A stretch of 63,147 nt of DNA from an uncultured bacterium (lineage in GTDB: Bacteria; Patescibacteriota; Doudnabacteria; UBA920): positions 1-63,147 of the forward strand of contig CAVVMJ010000008.1 of NCBI GenBank assembly GCA_963749445.1, written 5' to 3'. This document shows, piece after piece, positions 9,807 through 61,368 of this stretch. The position numbers and the translations under genes are program-made. The notes below the pieces were generated by a model. The model was not told the DNA's origin, ran no database searches, and saw nothing but the letters and a program-made list of their open reading frames with translations. Within the stretch, counting starts at the first letter, position 1. Each line of letters opens with the position of its first letter.

Positions 9807-9835
9807 GGGACAAGTTTTTCCCTAACGGCTATAAT
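9807..9835 (+). promoter_or_regulatory. candidate promoter (possibly leaderless mRNA)
   Basis: GGGACA-17 nt-TATAAT. The -10 ends 7 nt before the ATG at 9843. Confidence 0.35.
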
Positions 9836-9842
9836 ATCAGAT

Positions 9843-11312
9843 ATGACCAACACGGAAGCGGTAGGGGAACTAAAAGCCAAGATTTTGGCCAAACGGCCGA
9901 TACTAGCCGGCCTGTTCGAGCGTTATGCCAATACCTCGGTCGGGGAATATAACCGGATTTTGGGGCCTACGGCGGTTGCGGTTGACGCTGTCCGCAAACA
10001 GGATTTTATTGCGGCGATTTCCGCGGAAGTTGCCGGGCATTTTTCCTCCGCGGTTGCGGCCAGCACGGCCAGGCAGCTTAAGGAGGAATACATGGTTTCC
10101 ACGGCTGAACACCACGGCCCTTTGACGCATCCGTTTTTTGTCCACAGCAATCTGCTGGCTGCGTCCCGGCCGCGGAAAAACATTATTGTTCTGGCCGTGG
10201 GCAACGTTTCTTTGAATAATTCTTCTTATCCGCGGGGTTTGATTTTCCATGGCGCGGACGGCGCGGAGCACCGCCTGCCGTTTTTCCCGTGGCGCGAACG
10301 CATGTCAGCCGTCTTTGGCCAAAGGGCTTTTGACAGGCGCGACCTTAACCGGCTGGACGGGGCGCTTAATTATAAAATCCAAAGCCGCGAATTGTCCGCT
10401 CCCGCGGCCGCGGCGGTTCGTGAATTTGTCCATGAGGTTTACGGCCAGCCGGAAATTTTGGAGCAGCCGGACTACAATCATCAAATAGTCAAAACTAACG
10501 ATCGGTTATGGAAACAATTTTTTGTTCGGTCAGCTTTTCAGCCGCCGCGTTTGCTAACGCTACAGCTGGAAGATGTGGTAATTAAGCTTCTTTGCCGGCA
10601 CCACCTTTTTGCCCAAACCGAGATTTACGATTTAATTTTCAGTCCCGAAGTCCACGAGCTTCTCAAACAGCATGCCGATGGTATTCCCGGTAATTTTCAG
10701 CTTAAACAGGGCAAGGGCACGTTTTTATTTTGGCATTATTCAGGCAATGGCCGCCGCCAATTGTGGCTTAAAGGGGGAGATTTGGTTTCCGCGGAAGGCG
10801 ATCGGGTGGAGCTTCGGCCGCAGGCGATTGCCGCCGCCCTGGAGAGCGGGCGGTTAATTCCCGGCACGTTTTTAAGCCTGCTGCTTTTGTCGGAATATTA
10901 CGGAGTCAAGTGTCTGGGCGGCTTTAGCCAGGGTACTTATTTGACCAGAATGCACCAGGCTTACAATTTAATGCGCGGCCGGCCGGCCGAAGATTTCAAT
11001 CGAGAGCACAGCAGCGGCCTGCGTAGTGATTTTGTTTTGGGTTATTTTCAGGACAATTTGGGGCGCTTTCAGGCGGCCAGCGGTTTGGATTTGGCCCTGC
11101 ACAACCACCCAAAATTCTGGGAAATTTTTTCCGAAACTATCGGCAAACTTACATTAGAGCAAGCCATGGCGCCGCTGTTTCCAGAATTGTACCGGGCTCT
11201 TTATTCGGCCGCCGAGCAGCAGCCGGAGTTATCAAAAATTACCGCGGATGATATAATAAATTTTTACAATCTGCCCGATAAAATTATCCCATGCATTAAC
11301 ATAACCTTATGA
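9843..11312 (+). CDS. hypothetical protein (489 aa)
   Basis: Uninterrupted ORF with no motif recognised. Its stop overlaps the next start (ATGA, 11309..11312). Confidence 0.6.
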   Translation: MTNTEAVGELKAKILAKRPILAGLFERYANTSVGEYNRILGPTAVAVDAVRKQDFIAAISAEVAGHFSSAVAASTARQLKEEYMVSTAEHHGPLTHPFFVHSNLLAASRPRKNIIVLAVGNVSLNNSSYPRGLIFHGADGAEHRLPFFPWRERMSAVFGQRAFDRRDLNRLDGALNYKIQSRELSAPAAAAVREFVHEVYGQPEILEQPDYNHQIVKTNDRLWKQFFVRSAFQPPRLLTLQLEDVVIKLLCRHHLFAQTEIYDLIFSPEVHELLKQHADGIPGNFQLKQGKGTFLFWHYSGNGRRQLWLKGGDLVSAEGDRVELRPQAIAAALESGRLIPGTFLSLLLLSEYYGVKCLGGFSQGTYLTRMHQAYNLMRGRPAEDFNREHSSGLRSDFVLGYFQDNLGRFQAASGLDLALHNHPKFWEIFSETIGKLTLEQAMAPLFPELYRALYSAAEQQPELSKITADDIINFYNLPDKIIPCINITL

Positions 11313-12599: not shown

Positions 12600-14125
12600 A
12601 TGACGATCCGAGGATTTTTCACAAAAAAGAAAATTATTTGGGCGGCGATTATTTTGGTTGTGGCCGGTTTGATTGTTTGGAAAATCAAGAGCGGCAATAA
12701 TCCCGCCGGCAACATTTTGACCGATACGGTAAAAAGACAAAATCTCAAACAGACCGTTTTGGCTACCGGCCAGGTGGTGTCCAGCACGGATTTGGACCTG
12801 AGCTTCAAGGTCGGGGGCATTGTGGACAAAGTCAACGTCAAAGAGGGGGACAAAGTCAAGGCCGGCCAGGTCTTGGCTAATTTGGCGCAAGCCGACCAAG
12901 CGGCCGGCTTAACCCAGGCCCAGGGAGCCTTGGCCCAGGCCCAAGCCAACTACAATAAAGTTTTGGCCGGGGCGAGCAACGAAGATATCGCCGTGGCCCA
13001 GGTCGCTTTGGATAACGCCAAAACTTCTTTAGCCAACGCCATCGCCCAACAAAAAGTTTTGGTGGCTAACGCCTACAGCGCTTTGCTCAATTCCACTTTA
13101 ACCGCGGTGCCCAGTCCGACCAACGCCAGCGGGGTGACCATTACGGTCAGCGGCACTTATACCGGCACGGACCAGGGAGTTTACGGCATTTCAATTTACA
13201 GCACCGGTTCCGGCCAGAAGTTTAATGTTACCGGTTTGGAGACGGGCAGCGGTGACGTTAAGGCCGTGCCGATCCCTTTGGGAACCAGAGGGCTATCCAT
13301 CCAATTTTCCTCAATAGGCGTCAATGCCGGCGACAGCTGGACCATAACGGTCCCAAATACCCAAAGTTCAACTTATGTCACTAACTACAATGCTTATCAG
13401 GCCGCCTTGCAGACTCAACTTACCGGCGTGGCTGCGGCCCAGAGCAGCGTTTCCGCAGCCCAGGCCAATTTGGATTTAAAGAAAGCCCAAGCCCGGCCCG
13501 CGGACGTGCAGGCCGCCGAGGCGCAAATTTTAATCGCCCAGGGCCAGGTTCAGGCGGCCCAGGCGGCTTTGGAGAATACGATTATCCGCGCGCCGGCTGA
13601 CGGTACCATCACTTCAGTGGACATTAAAGTCGGGGAACAGGCCACGCCTTCCAAAGAGGCCGTGATTTTGCAGGACGTGGGAAATCTGCACATTGAAGCC
13701 AATGTCAGCGAAGCCAATATCGCTTCCGTGGCGCCCGACCAAACCGTGGACGTGACTTTTGACGCGCTCGGCCCGGACCGGCAATTTATGGCTACGGTGC
13801 GACGGTCAACCCGGCTTCCACGGTCATTTCCGGCGTGGTGGATTATTTGGTCAAGGCCAGTTTGCCCAATGACGTTTCAGAAATCAAACCGGGCATGACC
13901 GCCAATATGACCATTTTGGTCGGCGAAAAGGACAATGTCTTGGCCATCCCGCAGCGCGCGGTCATCAGCGACGGCAAAAAAAACGTACGCGTGATTGACA
14001 ACGACAAAAATAAAACTTATCACGAAGTGGAAGTGCAGACCGGCATGGAAGCCGATGGGGGATTGGTGGAGATTACTTCGGGCCTGAATGAAGGGCAGGA
14101 GATAGTGACGTATATTAAACAGTAG
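12600..14125 (+). CDS. HlyD/MacA-type periplasmic adaptor; one frame break
   Basis: N-terminal TM helix, Ala/Gln-rich coiled coil and C-terminal barrel region. ORFs 12600..13898 and 13835..14125 join at ~13785. Confidence 0.75.
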
Positions 14126-14227
14126 TTGGTTTTAAGTTATAGGAGCCGGTTTAGTAAATGGTCATAGGGTTTTGGTAACTTACAACTTTCGCCTTAAAAC
14201 CATACTGGTTTCCATAACCAATAACAT

Positions 14228-14950
14228 ATGCCTATGCTTCTTATCAAAGTCCAAAATCTCACCAAAGATTACGTCAACGAAGGCGTGGTGACGCCGGTGT
14301 TGCACGGCGACAGCTTTACCATTGACAGCGGGGAGTTTGTGGCCATAATGGGACCTTCAGGCTCCGGCAAATCCACTTTGATGCACATTTTGAGCTTTTT
14401 GGACCGGCCGACTGCCGGCCTGTATGAGTTTGAAGGCAAAAATACCCAAGAATTTCCGGATGATTATTTGGCCGAACTGCGGAACGAACGCGTTGGTTTT
14501 GTGTTCCAGTCGTTCAATCTTTTGGCCCGCACCACGGTGCTGGACAACGTCAAACTGCCCCTTATTTACAGCAAAAAAAAAAATCACGATTATCTGGCCA
14601 AACAGGCGCTGGAAGCGGTCGGGCTGTCGCACCGTCTGGATTATTACACCAACCAGATTTCCGGCGGGGAAAAACAGCGCGTGGCCATTGCCCGGGCTTT
14701 GGTTTGCGACCCGGCCGTAATTTTTGCCGACGAGCCGACGGGCAATTTGGACAGCAAAAGCGGCAACGCGGTTATGGAAATTTTGCAAAATCTGAACAAC
14801 CAGGGACGCACCATTATTTTAGTGACCCACGAAATGGATACGGCCAACCATGCCAAACGGATTATCCGCATCAAGGACGGCCAGCTGGTTGACGACCAGC
14901 CGGTGTTAAAGCGCACCATCGCCACGGCGGAGAGAGAATTGGTTAAGTAG
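14228..14950 (+). CDS. MacB/LolD-type ABC transporter ATP-binding protein
   Basis: Walker [10 protein letters not shown], signature [15 protein letters not shown], Walker [12 protein letters not shown]. Confidence 0.9.
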
Positions 14951-15057
14951 TAATCGCAAATATACAAATTTAGACAAATTTACAAATCCTCAGGTGAAAC
15001 CGTCCGCAGGTTTGTCATTTGTATATTTGTGTTGATTTGTATATTTGGGAACACTAC
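14947..15057. repeat. word-hairpin element, family A copy 1
   Basis: Termini GTAGTAATCGCAAATATACAAAT / ATTTGTATATTTGGGAACACTAC. Arms are built from TACAAAT words. Spans stop 14948-50 to 3 nt before ATG 15060. Confidence 0.8.
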
Positions 15058-15059
15058 CG

Positions 15060-16341
15060 ATGAACTTCTTCAGCACCATCAAACTCGTCATCCGCACCCT
15101 GCTGGCCCGCAAAGGCCGGTCGTTTTTAACCATCCTCGGCATTGTCATCGGCGTGGCCGGAGTGATTATCATTATTGCGCTCGGAGCCGGGCGCACAATC
15201 GCTGGTGTTCGGGCAAGTTACCAAATTGGGCTCGAATTTATTGAGCGTCCAGCCCGGCAAGAGCAATGAAAAAGGGCCGCCGGCGCAATTGTTCGGCATT
15301 GTGGTGACTACGCTGACTACGGACGACGCCAATGCTTTGCGCGACACCGGCCGCGTGCCGCACGCTCTGGCCGTAAACAGCTTAGTGCGCGGCACTGCCA
15401 CCGTCACCTGGGAAAACCAAACGGCGGACACCAATTTTGTCGGCACGGATTACCATTATCCGGGCGTGATTAGTTTTGACATGAAGGAAGGGCAGTTTTT
15501 TGACCAGCCGCAGGAACAGGGAAACGCCAACGTCGTGGTGCTCGGCTCAACGGTGGCCGATGAGTTGTTCGGCGGCCAGAACGTGGATCCGGTCGGCCAG
15601 GTCATTAAAGTCCGGACCGCTTCCCAAAGTTCGCAAAACCAGCCCGGCGGCATTCCCTTGCGCGTCATCGGCGTGGTGGCGCCGCGCGGCACTTCTTTTT
15701 TTCAGGACCAGGATGACCAGATTTTCCTGCCGTTGGCCATTGGCCAGCAGCAGCTTTTGGGCATCCATTACTTGCAGGCCATTAACATTAAAGTTGACTC
15801 TTCGGATACGGTCCAGCAGACCATTAACGATGTAGACGCAGTGATGAGGCAGCAGCATCACATTAAGCAGGATTCGGATCTTGATTACACCATACGCAAC
15901 ATTGCCGATGCCATCAGCATTCTTTCGACCATTACCAACGCGCTGACGCTGTTTTTAACGGCCATGGCTGCGATTGCTTTGTTGGTGGGCGGCATCGGCA
16001 TTTTGAATATTATGATGGTGACTGTGGCCGAGCGCACGCGAGAAATCGGTTTGCGCAAAGCCGTGGGCGCCGGCAATGCAGCCATTCGCAACCAATTTTT
16101 GTTGGAAGCAGGCACTTTAACCAGCCTCGGGGGAGTGGTGGGCATTATCGTGGGCATTATTGTTTCTTATTTTATTTCATTGTTAATGCACGCCTTAGGT
16201 TATGATTGGGCGTTCGTGATTTCCCTTACTTCGGTTGTTTTAGCGGTTGGCGTTTCCGTTTTGACCGGCGTGGTGTTTGGCCTTTATCCGGCGTTTAAGG
16301 CCGCCAAATTAAATCCGATTGAAGCGCTGAGGTATGAGTGA
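15060..16341 (+). CDS. MacB/FtsX-type ABC permease 1; one frame break
   Basis: N-terminal TM helix, large extracytoplasmic domain, FtsX bundle with ERTREIGLRKAVGA. Break at ~15192. Confidence 0.8.
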
Positions 16342-16455
16342 TTACAGATACAAATATACAAATAGTACAAATGCTACAAATCATACAAAATTTTGCTTAG
16401 TAGGTATTAGTATTATTTGTTTCATTTGTATGAATTTGTAGATTAGTATCTAACA
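16342..16455. repeat. word-hairpin (TACAAAT words), family A-like
   Basis: Left arm is ACAAAT-type words x5 and the right arm is ATTTGT words. It fills the whole spacer from stop 16341 to ATG 16459. Confidence 0.7.
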
Positions 16456-16458
16456 TTT

Positions 16459-17712
16459 ATGTTTACCGCTTTCCGCCAATCCATCAAAGCTCTGTTTGCC
16501 AATCCCGCCAGGACGGGACTGACGACTTTGGGTATTGTTATCGGCATTTCCACGGTGATTTTGGTTTTGTCCGCGGGCGCTGGCTTCCGAAGTTTGATTG
16601 ACGACCAGGTGGCCGCGCTTGGCAGCAACACTTTGTTTATTGAAACCCGCGTGCCGCCGACCACCAAGAACCGCGCTGCGAGCCAAAACACCACCAATAC
16701 TTCCGGTTTTTCCGGTGTGACCATTACCAGTTTCAAACAGCGCGATTTGGATAACATTAAGATTTTGGGAAACGTGGTGGATGGTTATGGCGAAGTCATC
16801 GGCCAGGCCGTGGTCAGTTATGGCAACAACGAAAAGAGTGCATTGTATTATGGCGCTTCTGCCGAAAAGTTTAATATAGATAAGCATACTTTAAAAGAAG
16901 GCCGGTTTTACACGCCGGGCGAAGACACCGGCGCGGCCCAGGTGGCGATTTTGGGAAACAGTTTGGCCACGGATTTGTTTGACGGGCAGGACCCTTTGGG
17001 CAGGCTAATCCGCGTCGGCAATTTGAATTTTTTGGTCATTGGCGTATATAATCCTTTGGGTTTGGCCGGCGGGGGCACGGCCGATGACAGTTTGTATCTC
17101 CCGTTGAATACGGCCCAGAAAAAATTGCTCGGCATAGACTACCTGCAAATCGGCGTGGTGCAGGTGCAAAATATCAATTTGGCTGATGCCACGATAGATG
17201 ATATCAAGGACGTTCTGCGCCACAATCATAACATCACCGATCCGGCCAAAGATGATTTTATTGGTGGAAAGCCAGGCGCAGGCACTGGATACTTTTAATA
17301 CGATTTTTAACGGCATCACCATTTTGTTGATTTGCATTGCCGCGATTTCTTTGATTGTGGGCGGCGTGGGCATTATGAATATTATGTACGTGGTGGTGAC
17401 GGAGCGCACGGCGGAAATCGGCCTGAAAAAAGCCTTGGGCGCCAAGAACGCCGACATTTTGATGGGATTTTTAATTGAATCCTTTTGGTTACCGTCATTG
17501 GCGGCGTGGTCGGGATTATTTTTGGCGGATTTTTAGGCTGGGTGGTGGCGTTAATTGCCCACGCGGCCGGGCTGGTTTGGGTGTTCAGTGTGCCGCTGTA
17601 TTCCATTTTTATCGCCGTCGGCGTTTCCGGCGGCATCGGCATTGCTTTTGGCGTGTTACCGGCCCGCGCGGCTTCCAAGCTGGATCCGGTGGAAGCGATG
17701 AGATACGAGTAA
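16459..17712 (+). CDS. MacB/FtsX-type ABC permease 2; two compensating frame breaks
   Basis: ORFs 16459..17298, 17198..17536 and 17485..17712 read as one protein (ERTAEIGLKKALGA). Breaks at ~17285 and ~17480. Confidence 0.8.
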
Positions 17713-17808
17713 TCTCTACTAAATACTAAAATATACTAAAGGTACTAAATACTAAACTGGCAAATAGGAGTTTAGTATTTTTAGCATCCTTTCGTATTTA
17801 GTAGAAGG
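17713..17808. repeat. word-hairpin element, family B copy 1 (ACTAAAT words)
   Basis: About 85% identical over its full length to 54687..54780. Starts right after stop 17710-12. Confidence 0.8.
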
Positions 17809-17852
17809 TTTATGTTATAATAGAATTGAGCAAGTAACACAAGGAAACCAAA

Positions 17853-22432: not shown

Positions 22433-22496
22433 GTCATCCCGGAATTTTTCACGTTTGAGCATTATCGGAAGCCGTGAAAAATATCCGGGATCCAGT
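22433..22496. repeat. GTCATCCCGG-type palindromic element, family D copy
   Basis: CCCGGAATTTTTCACG ... CGTGAAAAATATCCGGG. The same core occurs at 44277.. and 47702.. Confidence 0.7.
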
Positions 22497-22581
22497 CACA
22501 GGCTGTTTGATTTTTTTGAAGAGAGAGAGAGTATGCTATGTGCAAACAAAATTTGGTCGGAAAGGAAAGGAGGTTGATAGG

Positions 22582-25356: not shown

Positions 25357-25766
25357 TCAGACAAACAAAAAATTGAAAAGGAAATAGGGAGGTTTTTATT
25401 TACCCCAGAAACGGTTTAGGTTGTAAGGTGTAGCGGCCAGTACAGAAATAAGTAGTAAGGTATAAGGTGTGGCGTCCGGTGCGGTCGTAAGGAATGGGTT
25501 TTAGGTAACATATACCTTAAAACCTACCACTGCACCGGCCGCCAAGGCCAATACCCTATCACCATTTCTCGTACCGGCGGCCACGCCTTATAACTTATTA
25601 CCACCTTGTATCCAGTATCCTATTTGCAAGTCGCGAAAGCAGGTATCATCCCTCCTATTACTTGCTCTTAGCACCAAGCAAAGGTTCGTTGGCGTTTGTC
25701 AGCAGCTTTTCACTTGCAGGTAGGGTCTTGGGTGCAATTATTAAATCCGCTAGCGCGGATTTTTTG
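25357..25766 (+). ncRNA. candidate ~410-nt structured RNA of unknown class
   Basis: Bounded by the consensus promoter and by AATCCGC-tagc-GCGGATT+TTTT. It has no ORF. A closing helix pairs AAUAGGGAGG (25383..) with CCCUCCUAUU (25650..). It contains the family C hairpin. Confidence 0.3.
25413..25612. repeat. family C hairpin element (long copy)
   Basis: GGTTTAGGTTGTAAGGTGTAGCGGCCAGTA ... CGGCGGCCACGCCTTATAACTTATTACC. Confidence 0.7.
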
Positions 25767-26160
25767 ATTGCGAATTTCGGATTGCGGATTGGTTTTTCTT
25801 GAAGTTTTCTAAATAAACGATTAAACCCCCTATCTCGCCCGCAAGCTTTTCCATTTTTAGATTTATAGCTTCAAATTCGCTTTGGCTGATATATCCTATT
25901 GATAGGGCAATATAAAGTTGGTTCCTGACCTCGCCGACAGAACCTTTTGCCATTCTTAAAAATCTGACGAATTCATTGTTGTTATTCTTTTCAAATCCTT
26001 CAACTATTGTTGAGCTTACCGATACTATTGCCCTTCTAATCTGATCCTTTAAACCAAAATCTTTGCTCCATTTAGCATTGGCGCTTAAGTCGTAAATAAT
26101 TTTAGTTGCTTCTAGGGAACGTTGCCAAACAGGCAATTCCTCAAATTTTCTGTAATTCAT
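25750..26160 (-). CDS. four-helix-bundle protein (23S rRNA intervening-sequence protein family)
   Basis: RRAIVSVSSTIVEGF...FLRMAKGSVGEVRNQL pattern typical of this family. Confidence 0.7.
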   Translation of the reverse strand: MNYRKFEELPVWQRSLEATKIIYDLSANAKWSKDFGLKDQIRRAIVSVSSTIVEGFEKNNNNEFVRFLRMAKGSVGEVRNQLYIALSIGYISQSEFEAINLKMEKLAGEIGGLIVYLENFKKNQSAIRNSQSKNPR

Positions 26161-33426: not shown

Positions 33427-33762
33427 ATGAACGACTGCGTATTTTGCAACATCATCAACCGCACCATTGAGGCTAAAATTCTTTTGGAAACGGAAGACTT
33501 AATCGTCATTGACGACATTTTGCCCAAAGCCCCGGTTCATATGCTGGTTATCCCCAAAAAACATATTTTATCCATAAACCATTTGGATAACCAGGATGCG
33601 GCCCTGGCCGGCAAAATGATTGAGGCGGCCCAGCAAATGGCCAAGCGCAGTGGCATTGCCGATAAAGGTTATCGTCTGGTGTTTAATGTGGGCAAAGACG
33701 GGGGGCAGGTTATTCCGCATTTGCATTTGCATTTGCTAGGCGGCAAAAAGTTTAGCGATTAA
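33427..33762 (+). CDS. HIT-family (histidine triad) protein
   Basis: C-terminal HLHLHLLGG. Confidence 0.9.
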   Translation: MNDCVFCNIINRTIEAKILLETEDLIVIDDILPKAPVHMLVIPKKHILSINHLDNQDAALAGKMIEAAQQMAKRSGIADKGYRLVFNVGKDGGQVIPHLHLHLLGGKKFSD

Positions 33763-33864
33763 CCCGCCAAAATTTTAATCCTGTTGGTTGGCCGCCAATA
33801 TTTGTTGAATTATTTCGTCGTTCCACAAGCCGTTAATAATCAGAATTAAAATTTAGGCGGGTAA
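33759..33864. mobile_element. 107-bp-class MITE-like element, family G copy 1
   Basis: TIR TTAACCCGCCAAAATTTTA / TAAAATTTAGGCGGGTAAA. The left end overlaps the HIT stop codon. Confidence 0.55.
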
Positions 33865-33965
33865 AGTTAACAATAAGAATAACCATAACGAGAACTTTTG
33901 ACGGAGTTGTTATGGCTTTTTTGTTGTTATTGTTGCGACAGTGTTTTATTAAAATAGCACGGTGT

Positions 33966-34505: not shown

Positions 34506-34968
34506 ATGTTATCCCTTTCCCAAATCGAATCCGACCTTAAGAATGCTCTCAAAGCGCGCGACAGCCTGCGCGCCGACACTTTGCGCGGCCTTAAAACCCG
34601 CGTGCAAAACGCGCAGACGGCCGCGGGCCGTCCCAACCCCGAATTAAGCGAGCCGGAGATAATCGCTCTTATCAGGTCGGAACTTAAGAGCCGCAAGGAA
34701 GCCGCGGAAAGCTACAAAACCGGCGGCCGTTCCGGAGCTGGCTGAAAAAGAATTAAAAGAGGCGGAGATTTTGCAAAAGTATTTGCCCGCACAAATGAGC
34801 GAGCGGCAATTGGCCGCGATTGTGGAAAAGGCTGTGGCCGACATGGAAGCTACTGCCGCGGATTTTGGCAAAGTCATGGGCAAGCTAAAAGCCCAGCTCG
34901 GCGACCAGGCTGACGGCGCCACGCTGGCGCGAGTGTTGAAAGAAAAATTAAATAATAAGCAAATTTAA
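34506..34968 (+). CDS. GatB/YqeY domain protein; one frame break
   Basis: ORFs 34506..34745 and 34771..34968 join at ~34735. Confidence 0.75.
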
Positions 34969-35062
34969 CAATTAAGCAGTTAGCCAATGGCAACTGACTA
35001 GAAGTGAGCTGAAACGAATCTTCAACGTTATTCGCTAGATTCCGCGTACATTCTAGACGATA

Positions 35063-37888: not shown

Positions 37889-38052
37889 AATATGTGCTAT
37901 AATATATATGTAAGGTTTTTAAAGGTCGGGCCGCTATCCTAAAGGAGGTGGAGCGGACAAAACCATTACTTATAGAAACAAAAAATAAGCCAAGCCAAAA
38001 CACAAATCAACCAAGATTCCTTAGTTATCGGCTCTTTCAATTGGAGAGCGGA

Positions 38053-38159
38053 TTAACCCGCCAAAATTTTGCCATTTTTTATTGGGAGGATTTAGTTTTT
38101 AGTTGATTAAACAAATTATTTAATCTTCTTAAATCCTTTCGCAAAGTTTAGGCGGGTAA
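38053..38159. mobile_element. 107-bp MITE-like element, family G copy 2
   Basis: TTAACCCGCCAAAATTTTGCC ... GCAAAGTTTAGGCGGGTAAA. Same length and ends as 50490..50596. Confidence 0.6.
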
Positions 38160-38189
38160 ATTGGAGTTTTGGAAAATAAAATAAATTTT

Positions 38190-39806: not shown

Positions 39807-39910
39807 CTTCTCCTACGAACTTACGAACGGAGCGAACTACGAACTGCCGGTAAAATCCAAAGTAATTATGAGTTCGTAGTTCGATAAAGTTCGTACGTTC
39901 GTAGGGAAGG
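39807..39910. repeat. word-hairpin (TACGAAC / GTTCGTA words)
   Basis: Starts at the nucleotide after the nrdR stop (39804-06). Confidence 0.75.
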
Positions 39911-39949
39911 ACATCAGTTAAAAATTTAGGAATTAACGAGTAACATACT

Positions 39950-44276: not shown

Positions 44277-44362
44277 GTCCATCCCGGAATTTTTTGCGCT
44301 GATGACTGTCGCGAGCCGCAAAAAACCTGTCCTGAGCGAAGTCGAAGGATATCTGGGATCCA
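44277..44362. repeat. family D element copy
   Basis: TCCATCCCGGAATTTTTTGCG ... GATATCTGGGATCCAG with an internal CCTGAGCGAAGTCGAAGG motif. Confidence 0.6.
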
Positions 44363-47675: not shown

Positions 47676-47701
47676 CAATCATTAATTAAATTTATAATAG
47701 T

Positions 47702-47815
47702 TGTCATCCCGGAATTTTTTACGCTGATGGTTATCGTAAGCCGTAAAAAATATCCGGGATCCAGTCAGGCCTGGTTCTGGATCCCGGTTCTCGGCTGCTA
47801 CTGCCCGGGATGACA
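47702..47815. repeat. family D element (full copy)
   Basis: GTCATCCCGG ... CCCGGGATGAC outer arms with inner AATTTTTTACG/CGTAAAAAATAT. Confidence 0.75.
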
Positions 47816-47826
47816 GGGAAAAAAAT

Positions 47827-48774: not shown

Positions 48775-48937
48775 CATTCAGCGACCCATCAGCATACATA
48801 TCAGCATCAATTCAGCGGAAAGAGATCCTTTGGCCGGCCTGTGATAATCATCATGCGGCCTCAGATGACGCCGCTATTTTTAATTGTAGAGGTGGCGTCA
48901 CTTTTTTGCGAAAAAATCTCGGTAGTTTTAAAAATTC

Positions 48938-48970
48938 TTCCCTTTTTTCACATATGTGAAAAAAAGGAAA
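48938..48970. repeat. CACATATGTG-core palindrome, family F copy 1
   Basis: CCCTTTTTTCACAT|ATGTGAAAAAAAGG. It lies 3' of rel. Confidence 0.7.
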
Positions 48971-48980
48971 CAAAGTTATA

Positions 48981-50490
48981 TTACTTTTTTCGGAAGAAGC
49001 GGGGCAGGCTCAAGTCTTGCAGTTTTAATTCGCGGACGCGTTGGATAATGCCTTTGTCGTGTTCGGACAGATAATGGCGGATGCGGTTGCGCGCGTTGGA
49101 AGTTTTGGCGGCCTTGAGCCAGTCCCGCGAAATTACCGCGGGCTTTTTGGTTTTAATGATTTCCACGCTGTCCTCATTGTCCAGCTCGTCAAAGATGCTG
49201 GCCATTTTGCCGTTGATTTTGGCGCCCATCATATGGTAACCCAAATCGGTGTGCACCGCGAAGGCAAAATCAATCACGCTGGCTCCCTGCGGCAAGTCTT
49301 TAATGTCGCCTTTGGGCGTAAAGACAAAAATCCGGTCGTGAAAAAAATCCAGTTTTAAATTTTCCAAATACTCTTCGGGGTTGCCGGCCAGTTCCTCCCA
49401 GGCTGGACAGCTCCTTAATCCAGGGCGCCTGCGGGCGCACGGCCCCGTCGATTTTGCCTTCTTCCTCGTAAAACCAGTGTGCCGCCACGCCGCGTTCGGC
49501 CTCTTCGTGCATCAGGTCGGTGCGGATTTGGATTTCCACGGTTTTCCCGTCGCGGTCAAAGACCGTGGTGTGGATGCTTTGGTAGCCGTTGGGCTTGGGC
49601 GTGGCGATGTAATCTTTAATGCGCCCGGGCACGGGCTGGAAGTATTTGTGGATGACGCCCAAGGCGCCGTAGCAGTCGCCCGTGGTTTTGGCGATGATGC
49701 GGAAGGCGACAATATCGTAAATTTTGGTAATATCGCCTTTGTAGCGTTCCAGTTTGCGGAAAAAGGAGTAAAGCCTTTTTACGCGGCCGCCCACTTCCAA
49801 AAATTTGATGCCTTCGGTGCGCAGCATATGCTCCAGACGCTTTTGGGTTTCTTTAATGTTGGTGCCGCGGCGGAGCAATTCCTCGTCCAGGAGTTTTTTA
49901 GTTTTTTCGTAATCGGCCGGGTAAACGACCTTAAAAGCCAGGTCTTCCAGTTCGTCCTTCCAAGAGCTGATGCCCAGGCGGCTGGCGATGGGCGCGTACA
50001 TTTCCAGAGTTTCGGTGGCGACCTTGATTTGTTTTTGCGGCGGAATGAATTCCAGCGTGCGCATGTTGTGCAGCCGGTCGGCCAGTTTAATTAAAATGAC
50101 GCGGATGTCTTTGCTGGTGGCCAAAAACAGCTTGCGCAGATTTTCAATGTAAAATTTGTCCGAACTGGAGCGCAGGCGAACCTGGCCCAGCTTGGTGACC
50201 CCGTCTATCATTTCGGCGACTTCTTTGCCGAATTCTTGTTTGATATCCTCCAGCGTGACTTCGGTGTCTTCGGTCGTGTCGTGCAGCAGCGCCGCGGCCA
50301 GGGCCTTGGTGTCGGGAAAAATTTTGCCCAAAATTACCGCCGCCCTTTCCGGGTGGGTAAAGTAATCTTCCCCGCTTTTGCGCTTTTGCCCCCGGTGGGC
50401 GCGCTTGGCAAATTCAAAAGCGCGAATCAGGAATTTTTCCTCATCGGCGCTGAATTTATGGGGGATGGAATTAAGGAAGCTTTTGGGCAT
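48981..50490 (-). CDS. rel: RelA/SpoT-family (p)ppGpp synthetase/hydrolase; one frame break
   Basis: HD motif LHDTTEDT, synthetase PNGYQSIHTTV, C-terminal TGS (FVFTPKGDIKDLPQGAS). Break at ~49395. Confidence 0.85.
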
Positions 50491-50596
50491 TAACCCGCCT
50501 AAACTTTGCCCATTTTATTGGGCAGGCTTAATTATCAACGATATATGATTATAGTAAAAGCTTTTGTAGTTTTCCCGCAAAGTTTTGGCGGGTAAA
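50490..50596. mobile_element. 107-bp MITE-like element, family G copy 3
   Basis: TTAACCCGCCTAAACTTTGCCC ... GCAAAGTTTTGGCGGGTAAA. It abuts the rel start codon. Confidence 0.6.
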
Positions 50597-50640
50597 GGTA
50601 TTATACCAGTAGTAAGGGGGATAGGGGAATGGTATAATTG

Positions 50641-50730
50641 GATTGACAAGATTGACATGATTGAGCAAGATTGACAAGATTAAGGACGCAGCAAAAAATC
50701 ATGTCAATCTTTTAAATCTTGTTCAATCAT
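50641..50730. repeat. word-hairpin (GATTGACAA / TTGTCAATC-type words)
   Basis: Lies between a TGgTATAAT box (50630..50638) and the mutM ATG (50734). Confidence 0.7.
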
Positions 50731-51772: not shown

Positions 51773-52066
51773 ATGAAGAAGAAAATATTATTTGTTTTAA
51801 TAATCATTATAGTCATTGTTGTCTTCGCGGCTTGGTTTTTTTGGATTCAAATGCATTTAGTCACTGACCAAAGGATACCAGCAGGCACGCCACAAAATTA
51901 CCAAGAATGCATTAAGGCCGGCGGCAAAGTCATGTCCCAATTAAGCAGTCCTTACCCGCCTCAGTGTATTTACGGAAAATATCATTATTTTCTTGGAACG
52001 CCAGGAGTATATTTAGAAGGACAATTTCCGGATAGAAAATTATTTGACCCAAATTTTAAAAATTAA
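51773..52066 (+). CDS. hypothetical membrane-anchored protein (97 aa)
   Basis: N-terminal helix ILFVLIIIIVIVVFAAWFFWI. Confidence 0.5.
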   Translation: MKKKILFVLIIIIVIVVFAAWFFWIQMHLVTDQRIPAGTPQNYQECIKAGGKVMSQLSSPYPPQCIYGKYHYFLGTPGVYLEGQFPDRKLFDPNFKN

Positions 52067-52073
52067 AAAATAT

Positions 52074-52364
52074 ATGCAAGACGCTAATCAAAATGAATTA
52101 AATCAGCCGATGCAAACATCGGGGCCCTCCTACGCCGAGGCTTCGGAGGACAAGCAAATCAGAAAGCCAACCACCGATGAAATGCTGTTGGCGATATACA
52201 ATAATACGCGCAAGACCATGAACTATATGAAGTGGTCGCTGTATATTACCATTGTGCTCGTTGTTCTGCCGCTGCTTGCGATGATCGTCCTGTTGCCGTT
52301 GGTGTTGAAGTCGCTGGGCACGCTTGGCGGAATTTATGGGGCAGGGGGGGTACTGTCGCAGTAG
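52074..52364 (+). CDS. hypothetical membrane protein (96 aa)
   Basis: ATG 52074 and a C-terminal double helix. The N-terminal PSYAEASEDK is encoded by a CCTACGCCGAGGCTTCGGAGGACAAG repeat motif. Confidence 0.5.
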   Translation: MQDANQNELNQPMQTSGPSYAEASEDKQIRKPTTDEMLLAIYNNTRKTMNYMKWSLYITIVLVVLPLLAMIVLLPLVLKSLGTLGGIYGAGGVLSQ

Positions 52365-52485
52365 TAATCGCAAATATACAAATCAATACAAATATACAAA
52401 TAGCTGCACAGTGGGTTGAAGTTTTAATCAAGCGTTTACAGGGGATTTGTATATTTGTTAAAATTTGTATATTTGCGAACACTAC
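52361..52485. repeat. word-hairpin element, family A copy 2
   Basis: Same 23-nt termini as 14947..15057. Spans stop 52362-64 to 1 nt before ATG 52487. Confidence 0.8.
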
Positions 52486-52486
52486 T

Positions 52487-52834
52487 ATGACTGACGAAAA
52501 ATGGCAACAATTGGTGGAGACGGCGCAAAAGAATTTTAAGGGCGCAAAATTATATGCCGAAGATTTGATTTTGGAAACGTCGGATGGGCCGCAAAAAAAG
52601 GGCACGCAGGACGTGCTGGAATTTGGTTTGCCGCAGGGCGGGAAATATAAGTTGGTTCGTGAGAATAAGCCCATCGTCCTGGAAAAAAAGGAATTGTATT
52701 CCCACCGCGCCGGGCAGAGCGCGCAAACCCAGTATAAATTTTCGGAGACGGAGTTTTCCCATCGGCTACGCGTCTACAAAGAGGTGGATTTTGACGATTG
52801 GGAGGAAGTAACGTTGGATACTTTAGGTTTGTAG
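52487..52834 (+). CDS. hypothetical protein (115 aa)
   Basis: ATG 52487. The track ORF extension upstream runs through the repeat and is unlikely to be real. Confidence 0.5.
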   Translation: MTDEKWQQLVETAQKNFKGAKLYAEDLILETSDGPQKKGTQDVLEFGLPQGGKYKLVRENKPIVLEKKELYSHRAGQSAQTQYKFSETEFSHRLRVYKEVDFDDWEEVTLDTLGL

Positions 52835-54686: not shown

Positions 54687-54780
54687 TCTACTAAATACTA
54701 AATTATACTAAAGGTACGAAATACGAAACTGGTATTCATCAGTTTAGTATATTTAGTACTCTTTCGTATTTAGTAGAAGT
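54687..54780. repeat. word-hairpin element, family B copy 2
   Basis: About 85% identical to 17713..17808. It lies in the groES 5' leader. Confidence 0.8.
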
Positions 54781-54793
54781 TTCGGAGAAACCT

Positions 54794-55099
54794 ATGAAAG
54801 TAAAACCTTTAGGCAACCGGGTGCTGGTAAAGCAGGACAGCCAGGAAGAGGTGACCAAGAGCGGCATTGTTTTGCCGGACACTGCGGATAAGGAAAAAAA
54901 GGCCGTTGGCCGGATTGTGGAATTGGGCAGCGGGCCGGAAATCAAAACTTTGGGGCTTAAGGTCGGCGACAAAGTCGTGTTCGGCAAATACGCGGGCGAC
55001 GAGGTGGAGCTGGACGAAGACGGCAAGAAAGTGGAATACAAAATTTTATCCGTCGGGAAAGAGAAGGACGAGAGCGACATTTTAGCAATTGTTGAATAA
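54794..55099 (+). CDS. groES: co-chaperonin GroES
   Basis: MKVKPLGNRVLVK...SGIVLPDTA...GDKVVFGKYAG. Confidence 0.95.
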   Translation: MKVKPLGNRVLVKQDSQEEVTKSGIVLPDTADKEKKAVGRIVELGSGPEIKTLGLKVGDKVVFGKYAGDEVELDEDGKKVEYKILSVGKEKDESDILAIVE

Positions 55100-55193
55100 T
55101 ATTACTAGCTTTACTAACTACTAATCTTTACTAATATACTAATGTGTCATATCAAGAATTAGTATATTAGTAACCAATTCGTAGTTAGTAAAG
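55100..55193. repeat. word-hairpin (TTACTAA / TTAGTAA words)
   Basis: Starts at the nucleotide after the groES stop and ends 16 nt before the groEL ATG. Confidence 0.7.
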
Positions 55194-55209
55194 ACAGGAG
55201 AATTTAAAA

Positions 55210-56886: not shown

Positions 56887-56941
56887 GGAGACGAATTAGC
56901 GCGAATCAGGGCAGACGAATTTTCACGAAAACACGAACGTA

Positions 56942-60599: not shown

Positions 60600-60631
60600 T
60601 TCCTTTTTATCACATATGTGATAAAAAGGAA
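60600..60631. repeat. perfect 32-bp palindrome, family F copy 2
   Basis: TTCCTTTTTATCACAT|ATGTGATAAAAAGGAA. Confidence 0.85.
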
Positions 60632-60651
60632 GAATTTAAGGCAAAACGCAA

Positions 60652-61326: not shown

Positions 61327-61368
61327 ATTTTATTCCTTTTTTTCACATATGTGAAAAAAAGGAATAAA
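61327..61368. repeat. perfect 42-bp palindrome, family F copy 3
   Basis: TTTTATTCCTTTTTTTCACAT|ATGTGAAAAAAAGGAATAAAA. Confidence 0.85.

Follow-up and report, generated by a model that had tools for sequence, protein, structure and literature searches.

What kind of genetic element sits exactly between the stop codon of one gene and the start codon of the next? The question is raised by a hairpin-forming sequence present twice in contig CAVVMJ010000008.1, of which a stretch of 63,147 nt (here called the window) was analysed; the copies lie at 14947-15057 and 52361-52485. An initial annotation of these copies offered two answers: a mobile intergenic cassette that brings its own stop/start context, or a device for structure-dependent translational coupling or re-initiation. 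We propose that the two hairpins are probably members without an open reading frame (orf), similar to MITEs (miniature inverted-repeat transposable elements), of a superfamily of junction-specific cassettes in Patescibacteria, whose full-length form carries the gene of a GxxExxY nuclease. The window is syntenic with metagenome-assembled genomes (MAGs) of Doudnabacteria at 70-80% nucleotide identity, which assigns it to this group.

Each copy begins with the same 23-mer, GTAGTAATCGCAAATATACAAAT, which matches exactly at 14947 and 52361 on the forward strand, and ends in its near reverse complement (15035-15057 with three mismatches, 52463-52485 with two), as the initial annotation described. 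Four terminus matches are found in the window compared with none in 100 dinucleotide shuffles. Inside the ends, the 13-mer CAAATATACAAAT occurs twice per arm at a spacing of 18 nt (nine matches in the window versus 0.2 expected), and each arm is laid out as four RCRAAT hexamers at 0, 8, 18 and 26 nt. Arm length is 41-47 nt, with 83% complementarity. Predicted RNA folding energies are −39.0 kcal/mol for copy 1 (z = −4.7) and −53.2 kcal/mol for copy 2 (z = −9.3), and none of 200 shuffled sequences is as stable for either copy; both thus fold far better than the shuffled controls named in the initial annotation. The interiors do differ, and are mutually unrelated; they are, however, 29 nt and 43 nt long rather than the 60-80 nt first given, a figure that included the inner arm words. 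An Rfam scan gave no match anywhere in the window, the element included, at the gathering threshold and only spurious microRNA-like matches below it, and no rRNA match is present in the window.

The coordinates of these features are given in Table 1. The orfs at 14228-14950 and 52044-52364 both end at a TAG within the left terminus, and the next ATG follows the right terminus by 1-2 nt, at start sites that are the orthologous ones; these two points of the initial annotation hold. All sampled homologues of the upstream ATPase at 82–89% identity end in ...ELVK, as does the ATPase of the window. The reported lack of a Shine-Dalgarno (SD) tract ahead of either ATG (15060 and 52487) is also borne out but carries no weight, because an SD core is found at only ~14% of ordinary starts in these genomes and its absence at element-linked starts is therefore not distinctive.

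Table 1. Element copies and adjoining genes in the window, and the state of the ATPase/permease junction in the genomes compared. Loci in other genomes are given by L numbers.
Feature	Position or locus	Strand	Remarks
MacB-type ABC transporter ATPase, upstream of copy 1	14228..14950	+	orf; stop is the TAG within the element
TAG stop of ATPase, then in-frame TAA	14948..14953	+	both within left terminus
Copy 1 left arm	14947..14987	.	end GTAGTAATCGC and two 13-mers, CAAATATACAAAT / CAAATTTACAAAT
Copy 1 unique interior (loop)	14988..15016	.	unrelated to copy 2 interior
Copy 1 right arm	15017..15057	.	two ATTTGTATATTTG 13-mers and end GGGAACACTAC
MacB-type permease, downstream of copy 1	15060..16341	+	ATG 2 nt past element; orthologous start (MNFF...)
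Third hairpin, related to but distinct from the copies, of the same ACAAAT hexamers, without GTAGTAATC ends	16342..16458	.	exactly fills TGA-to-ATG junction between two permease genes
Small membrane protein ending ...GGVLSQ*, upstream of copy 2	52044..52364	+	stop is the element's TAG
Copy 2 left arm	52361..52401	.	GTAGTAATCGC and two CAAATATACAAAT words
Copy 2 stops within left arm	TAG 52362-52364, TAA 52365-52367		
Copy 2 unique interior	52402..52444	.	
Copy 2 right arm	52445..52485	.	two ATTTGTATATTTG words and GCGAACACTAC
Conserved 115-aa protein, downstream of copy 2	52487..52834	+	ATG 1 nt past element; orthologous start (MTDEKW...)
ATPase/permease junction: TAATG overlap	L118		reads GTTAAGTAATGAAT
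ATPase/permease junction: TAA/ATG	L120		
ATPase/permease junction: 19-nt spacer	L122		
ATPase/permease junction: short form of focal element	window, L014, L034		
ATPase/permease junction: long form of focal element	L023		
ATPase/permease junction: four unrelated word hairpins	L117, L121, L119, L123		51-89 nt, each spanning stop to ATG
ATPase/permease junction: 450-nt insert	L116		

The terminus GTAGTNNTCNCAAATATACAAAT was used as a query against 185,579 species genomes (one genome per species), and 35 loci were recovered. Nearly all are in MAGs of Patescibacteria, with 13 from a single Candidatus Doudnabacteria MAG, nzgw383, which holds at least 16 copies of the element; three matches in other phyla resemble chance matches. 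Complete elements have a total length of 63-125 nt, with 41-nt arms, and contain no conserved orf. Every terminus with five or fewer mismatches was scored against the neighboring long orf. Among 29 termini that face a gene end, the upstream stop is the TAG at terminus positions 2-4 in 23 and lies 2-3 nt ahead of the terminus in the others; no gene reads into the element (p = 5e-7 against one frame in three). At the approximately 30 termini that face a gene start, the ATG is 0-7 nt past CTAC. Each of the 23 complete elements has one terminus of either kind and so separates two genes of the same direction, compared with a background of 71% (p = 4e-4), and apparently divergent cases are elements in minus-strand operons. 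The tandem TAG-TAA end is favored on the stop side (17/22 vs 9/22, p = 0.03). The placement of the termini is thus not arbitrary with respect to genes, the outcome that the tabulation suggested in the initial annotation was meant to distinguish. One further site in the window, a 140-nt filler upstream of ftsA (34923-35062), corresponds to an orthologous site in L015 with an intact focal element (CAAATTTAACAAT against CAAATTTTAACAAAT, and ...GCGTACATTCTAGAC against ...GCGAATACTAC), and may be a decayed relic of it, although this is uncertain.

Three 97-nt elements of nzgw383 (L021, L018 and L007) are 90-94% identical, including their 15-nt loop, and have unrelated flanks; L016 holds two further copies with a common interior. 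The two 5-nt spacers between words are non-complementary and so give the element a polarity, and relative to the operon 10 short elements lie one way and 7 the other. Because these copies are nearly identical, interior included, at unrelated junctions, it is the whole short form that is copied, to unrelated junctions and in both orientations; the same copies and the two orientations rule out that short forms are solely in-place deletions of long forms. The element has the terminal inverted repeats, small size and lack of coding capacity of a MITE, and within a single genome, nzgw383, nearly identical copies of it are found at unrelated loci. Carriage by phages was considered and ruled out, as viral contigs gave no match to the element and there was no PADLOC match and no meaningful PHROG match.

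Filled and empty orthologous sites, a further MITE property, are found at the ATPase/permease junction, which was compared in 12 genomes with ATPases that are 82-89% identical. The filled junction of the window reads GTTAAGTA/GTAATCGC...CACTACCG/ATGAA and the empty junction GTTAAGTA/ATGAA, and therefore no duplication is evident. The ATPase stop is TAG in all four genomes with the focal family and TAA both at the empty sites of L118 and L120 and ahead of the 19-nt spacer of L122. At the junction occupied by copy 2, members of the superfamily are present in L031 and L126/L127, whereas the closest relative, L124, has a 99-nt hairpin of another word family, despite a downstream gene with 89% nucleotide and 96% amino-acid identity; L125 has yet another hairpin. 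Junction hairpins are thus exchanged quickly between close relatives.

A longer form of the element is present at L011, L012, L013, L020 and L023, where termini common to the short form lie 452-471 nt apart and enclose an orf of 125-130 aa. The product matches PF13366 (PDDEXK_3; E = 1e-21, 77.9 bits with a cut-off of 22) and the NCBIfam family GxxExxY (TIGR04256; 77.4 bits, cut-off 35). All of these nuclease genes are co-directional with the operon. The orf begins with an ATG after the inner end of one arm and stops 2-5 nt ahead of the other, so that in long forms a stop and a start are connected by every single arm. L023 has its long form at the same ATPase/permease junction as copy 1 of the window, L014 and L034, and L024 is a decayed 263-nt remnant. 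Residues D70, E80 and K82, together with the glycine and glutamate of the GxxExxY motif, are invariant in 29 sequences. An AlphaFold (AF2) model (pLDDT 89.7) predicts a minimal PD-(D/E)XK core, which is most similar to the folds of Cas4 and lambda exonuclease, at modest TM-scores; no solved structure matching the protein by sequence was found.

A metagenome search with the protein alignment of this nuclease returned 80 loci, of which 59 were examined. On either side of about 50 of these 59 PDDEXK_3 genes are inverted arms of 35-50 nt with the design of the element: an outer end (G/A)(G/T)AGTAATCGC followed by two words that are variants on RCRAAT-N2/3-RCRAAT (CAAATATACAAAT, GAATATACGAAT, GAATAATGCGAAT and others), with the ATG of the next gene 0-4 nt past the arm. 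In a non-redundant set of 156 termini from this superfamily, the stop within the terminus is the upstream stop in 43 (TAA in 25, TAG in 18) as against about 9 read-ins, and for 50 of 64 the distance to the ATG is 1-5 nt. Since either TAA or TAG can serve in this way, the GTAG head of the window family is a family-specific extra stop and not a general head of the kind seen in repetitive extragenic palindromic (REP) sequences. Single arms are duplicated in tandem beside some PDDEXK_3 genes (two left arms 49 nt apart at L040 1910-1999, three right arms 58 nt apart at L084 2390-2540), and each of these duplications takes in the initial bases of the gene downstream.

Between long forms, non-synonymous divergence of the nuclease gene (pN) is 0.08-0.17 and synonymous sites are saturated (pS 0.72-0.98), and yet the arms are 80–95% identical. 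Both the nuclease and the hexamer words are under strong purifying selection. The conserved positions are 1-4, 8-9 and 11 of the end, together with the words, whereas there is no constraint at positions 5-7 and 10 or in the spacers, and the spacers between words are unpaired; such a pattern is that of sites recognized by their sequence, not of a helix for which pairing would be enough. Word type co-varies only weakly with the clade of the protein (identity 0.60 vs 0.53).

These observations describe the following cassette. Two inverted arms of ~41 nt each have (G)[T/G]AGTAATC[G/C]C as a conserved outer end and, next to it, four RCRAAT hexamers, with full-length members enclosing the 125-130-aa GxxExxY/PDDEXK_3 gene and short members only a loop of 15-45 nt. 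It resides only in co-directional gene junctions and takes up what in an uninvaded relative are overlapping or abutting stop and start codons (TAATG), its end supplying the upstream stop (TAG and/or TAA) and its sequence stopping 0-7 nt short of the ATG of the host. The nuclease may bind the hexamer words and so mobilize long and short forms alike. Insertion may be tolerated since pairing of the arms in the polycistronic mRNA would return stop and start to the base of one stem, by either of two routes: a ribosome halting at the stem base could open the last 10-15 pairs beside the ATG, so that termination-linked re-initiation persists, or RNase III could cut the stem, as in rRNA intervening sequences, so that the second cistron would start with a short leader rich in A/U. 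The mobile cassette of the initial annotation is largely supported, by the dispersed family in many genomes, the near-identical copies, the empty site and the nuclease-bearing long form, and also in carrying its own stop; the start belongs to the host.

Several points weigh against this proposal. No direct repeats flank the element ends, although GTAG...CTAC is itself inverted and a shared TA blurs the boundary; target-site duplications of TA, TAR or GTAC were modeled, and no model fits both ends. There is no PDDEXK_3 gene within the window, the PF13366 protein of the long form has no known transposase activity, and its family is listed as 'function unknown', with neither transposase nor homing activity demonstrated (PMC3424549). 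The occupied junctions are often orthologous between genomes (upstream of ftsE, ATPase/permease, and the copy 2 site), so that much of the distribution is vertical and real transposition may be rare. To account for the preferred in-frame use of the terminal stop, one has to assume either selection or TA(R)-directed integration. Among the mismatches between the arms, as read on the sense strand, G.U does not exceed A.C (33 vs 43, p = 0.3), and RNA pairing is thus not visibly under selection. Finally, unrelated families of word hairpins occupy the same junctions with the same stop-to-start fit, and the filling of junctions could reflect a requirement of the host for a hairpin rather than a property of the element.

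A host requirement of this kind is the basis of the coupling explanation, according to which the stem is selected because it juxtaposes stop and start, the downstream gene without an SD relies on ribosomes that terminate upstream (by unmasking or re-initiation), and mobility is incidental. A stop in the stem with an ATG at 0-7 nt in more than 100 termini is what coupling would call for, and the preference for TAG-TAA on the stop side and the like fit of unrelated hairpin families point the same way. The unoccupied junctions are TAATG or TAA/ATG, i.e. coupled already, but L118, L120 and L122, with ATPases within the same identity range, manage without any hairpin. The arms lack a G.U over A.C bias, it is the words that are conserved and not the unpaired spacers, the element is found in both orientations, a lone unpaired arm bridges stop and start in the long forms, and there is an association with a nuclease gene. 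We therefore regard selected coupling as improbable; what survives of the corresponding idea in the initial annotation is coupling as a plausible consequence, with TAATG at unoccupied sites and a hairpin that would restore the adjacency, whereas selection on RNA pairing is not supported.

A stem of about 40 positions, as found here, is sufficient in length for RNase III, and the element could also be an intervening sequence (IVS) of mRNA, its stem cut by RNase III or by its own nuclease so that the cistrons are separated, the loop is discarded and the element is neutral. We give this no better a chance than selected coupling. Its architecture, a stem with an optional orf in the loop (as in long forms L011, L013, L023, L036 and L037), is identical to that of the orf-bearing 23S IVS of Coxiella, which is excised by RNase III (PMC4990558). 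The 23S IVSs of Leptospira and Coxiella are likewise selfish insertions in a transcribed region with a long stem and a small loop orf, the stem base rejoins the flanking functional RNA, and versions without an orf exist. The analogy is strengthened by their protein family, PF05635, which is also found in the window and, in relatives (L119 and L125), in cassettes with word arms that occupy operon junctions. Correia hairpins of Neisseria (CREE/NEMIS), when present in mRNA, are also RNase III substrates (PMC2649163). Unlike the 23S elements, those described here lie between protein-coding cistrons and not in rRNA helices, which excludes an rRNA-type IVS proper, and their orf is of the GxxExxY/PDDEXK_3 family; the stems are A/U-rich with internal loops, and the motif of the nuclease is that of a metal-dependent D-ExK DNA nuclease and not an RNase signature.

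The '23S rRNA IVS protein' gene of the window (PF05635/TIGR02436, a four-helix bundle) is at 25750-26160 on the minus strand with a ATTACGTATTACGAATTACGTATTC word spacer ahead of it. In L125 such a gene (1417-1809) has inverted arms of GAAATA and TATTTC words on its two sides, and the following ATG comes straight after the arm; in L119 (3634-) it is in an operon junction where the upstream word spacer is visible and the locus ends inside the gene.

The words could alternatively be operators of a regulon, with PDDEXK_3 a domesticated sequence-specific DNA-binding protein and the four-plus-four words controlling downstream genes. Conservation of the words, but not the spacers, far beyond that of synonymous sites would fit, as would the stable presence, in many lineages, of long forms upstream of ftsE. 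The catalytic residues D, E and K nevertheless do not vary, the sites are within operons between stop and start rather than at promoters, close relatives differ in which junctions are occupied, and remnant or decayed copies are present (L024, L109), all of which makes operators distinctly unlikely.

GTAG is the typical head of REP sequences and stands at the start of both ends, and the doublet folds as a hairpin of about 100 nt similar to a REPIN, in which two inverted REPs are moved by a RAYT (Y1 HUH) transposase. Further shared features with REP/BIME and REPIN-RAYT systems are the occurrence of extragenic palindromes in operons and of a gene enclosed between inverted repeat copies. The head is not conserved in the superfamily, however, where it is mostly GGAG or AGAG, the single arms are direct-repeat words and not palindromes, and the enclosed gene is PF13366 and not a Y1 transposase; the superfamily heads and the PDDEXK_3 gene rule out the REP/RAYT analogy, and this explanation is already contradicted. 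An intrinsic terminator, a promoter module or a chance low-complexity palindrome has just as negligible a prospect: the element is an A/T-rich hairpin at a gene end, but it has neither the G+C-rich stem and U-tract of a Rho-independent terminator nor a properly spaced sigma-70-like hexamer pair for an outward promoter giving leaderless mRNAs, the ATG follows immediately after the stem, zero chance matches are expected, and the sequence is conserved across genomes.

Returning to the nuclease-associated cassette, the closest known elements share some of its features. The Correia elements noted above are 70-160 bp or so in length with long terminal inverted repeats, many genomic copies, co-transcription with neighbors and insertion polymorphism between strains (PMC2649163). 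They differ in having a TA target duplication, integration host factor (IHF) sites, outward promoters and a variable distance to genes, none of which were found in the focal element; the latter is restricted to stop-to-start junctions, contributes a stop and is a palindrome over nearly its whole length, with hexamer repeats in subterminal position, and its long form encodes a PD-(D/E)XK protein that is not a known transposase. Mycobacterial interspersed repetitive units (MIRUs) are repeats of 40-100 bp inside operons with ends that overlap the adjacent genes of a polycistron (PMC3184786, citing Supply 1997), and in stop/start geometry no other precedent comes as near. They are, however, direct or tandem units, rich in G+C and with small orfs, whereas the focal element is a long A/T-rich hairpin, present in single copies and not in tandem arrays, with no conserved mini-orf. 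A MIRU-like mini-orf ending at an ATGA overlap was rejected, as open frames through the elements are inconsistent; ATGA itself is enriched (21/29), against an uncertain background of 38-50%. Integron attC sites are imperfect inverted repeats of 57-141 nt between the stop of a cassette orf and the next orf, with variable sequence and conserved structure. The focal element has the same kind of position, but its ends are GTAGTAATC...GATTACTAC, there are no RYYYAAC/GTTRRRY cores and no arrays, and it is isolated in housekeeping operons; no integrase gene turned up beside the elements, although no search was aimed at integrases.

Other hairpins and repeats are present in the window. The hairpin at 16342-16458 has five ACAAAT hexamers per arm at a spacing of 8-9 nt, and at the orthologous junction L014 has 13 tandem CTTGTCAATCT copies instead. 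TACTAAA-word hairpins at 17706-17810 and 54687-54782 are 85% identical to each other; the first begins cGAGTAATCTC, the TAA of which terminates permease 2, and has TGTTATAAT and an SD after it, whereas the arm of the second is entered by the reading frame of the upstream minus-strand orf. This word family also fills the junction between permease 1 and permease 2 in L116. Additional word hairpins or arrays are located at 39807-39925, 50640-50718, 55081-55209 and 56887-56940, with the hexamers ACGAAC (after nrdR), AGATTGACAAG, TACTAAT and ACGAAT; L031 has a AAGAACCAAG-word hairpin at the junction orthologous to 55081-55209. A different inverted-repeat element of about 105 nt is present in three copies (33758-33869, 38052-38164 and 50489-50600) with G+C-rich ends, ATTAACCCGCC[A/T]AAA...TTT[A/T]GGCGGGTAAA, and unrelated interiors. 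The perfect palindrome TTCCTTTTTTTCACATATGTGAAAAAAAGGAA follows gene ends three times (48935-48970, 60600-60634 and 61330-61364), and the repeat GTCATCCCGGAATTTTTT...GCCGTAAAAAATATCCGGGATCCAGTCA is found at 22462-22498, 44280-44325 and 47701-47816, the last of these being a 116-nt hairpin (−54 kcal/mol) that fills a junction.

In the MacB-type operon (12600-17712), the ATPase is intact and all three membrane components are frameshifted relative to their orthologues: the membrane-fusion protein (12600-14125), permease 1 (15060-16341, near position 15190 in this assembly) and, at two places, permease 2 (16459-17712). The operon is either in decay or affected by indel errors of the assembly. Elsewhere, a TATAAT is positioned 7 nt ahead of the ATG at 9843 (9826-9845) with no SD, which suggests a leaderless transcript, in line with the low SD usage of these genomes.

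The initial annotation knew of no described element with this geometry, and the literature searched agrees, apart from the partial analogues MIRU, Correia, REP and 23S IVS. No description was found in searches of the literature on PDDEXK_3/GxxExxY, on MITEs of the Candidate Phyla Radiation (CPR) or on repeats that bridge stop and start, which is not proof of absence. The elements belong to a familiar kind, that of inverted-repeat mobile elements or of intervening sequences; their niche, their partner gene and the stop codon carried in their end are unusual. More tentatively, they may represent a previously unrecognized class of 'operon-junction cassettes' in Patescibacteria, which would integrate exactly into stop/start overlaps with a stop of their own, be rendered harmless at the RNA level by stem-mediated re-initiation or IVS-like excision, and have as their driving enzymes or passengers the large orphan GxxExxY/PDDEXK_3 family and, in parallel, the four-helix-bundle IVS-protein family, with the RCRAAT repeats as recognition sites. 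If this is true, the exchange of junction hairpins would contribute strongly and fast to intergenic variation in streamlined genomes.

The association gives the widespread GxxExxY/PDDEXK_3 family a concrete genomic context and a testable role. Gene calling is likely to be affected by stop codons that lie inside repeats, and the assembly and strain typing of CPR genomes could be affected as well. The junctions provide a natural system for asking how an insertion of 100-480 nt can sit between coupled genes with the operon unbroken, through stem-driven re-initiation or processing. The intergenic DNA of these ultra-small genomes consists largely of junction-specific hairpin elements, with fast turnover between close relatives.

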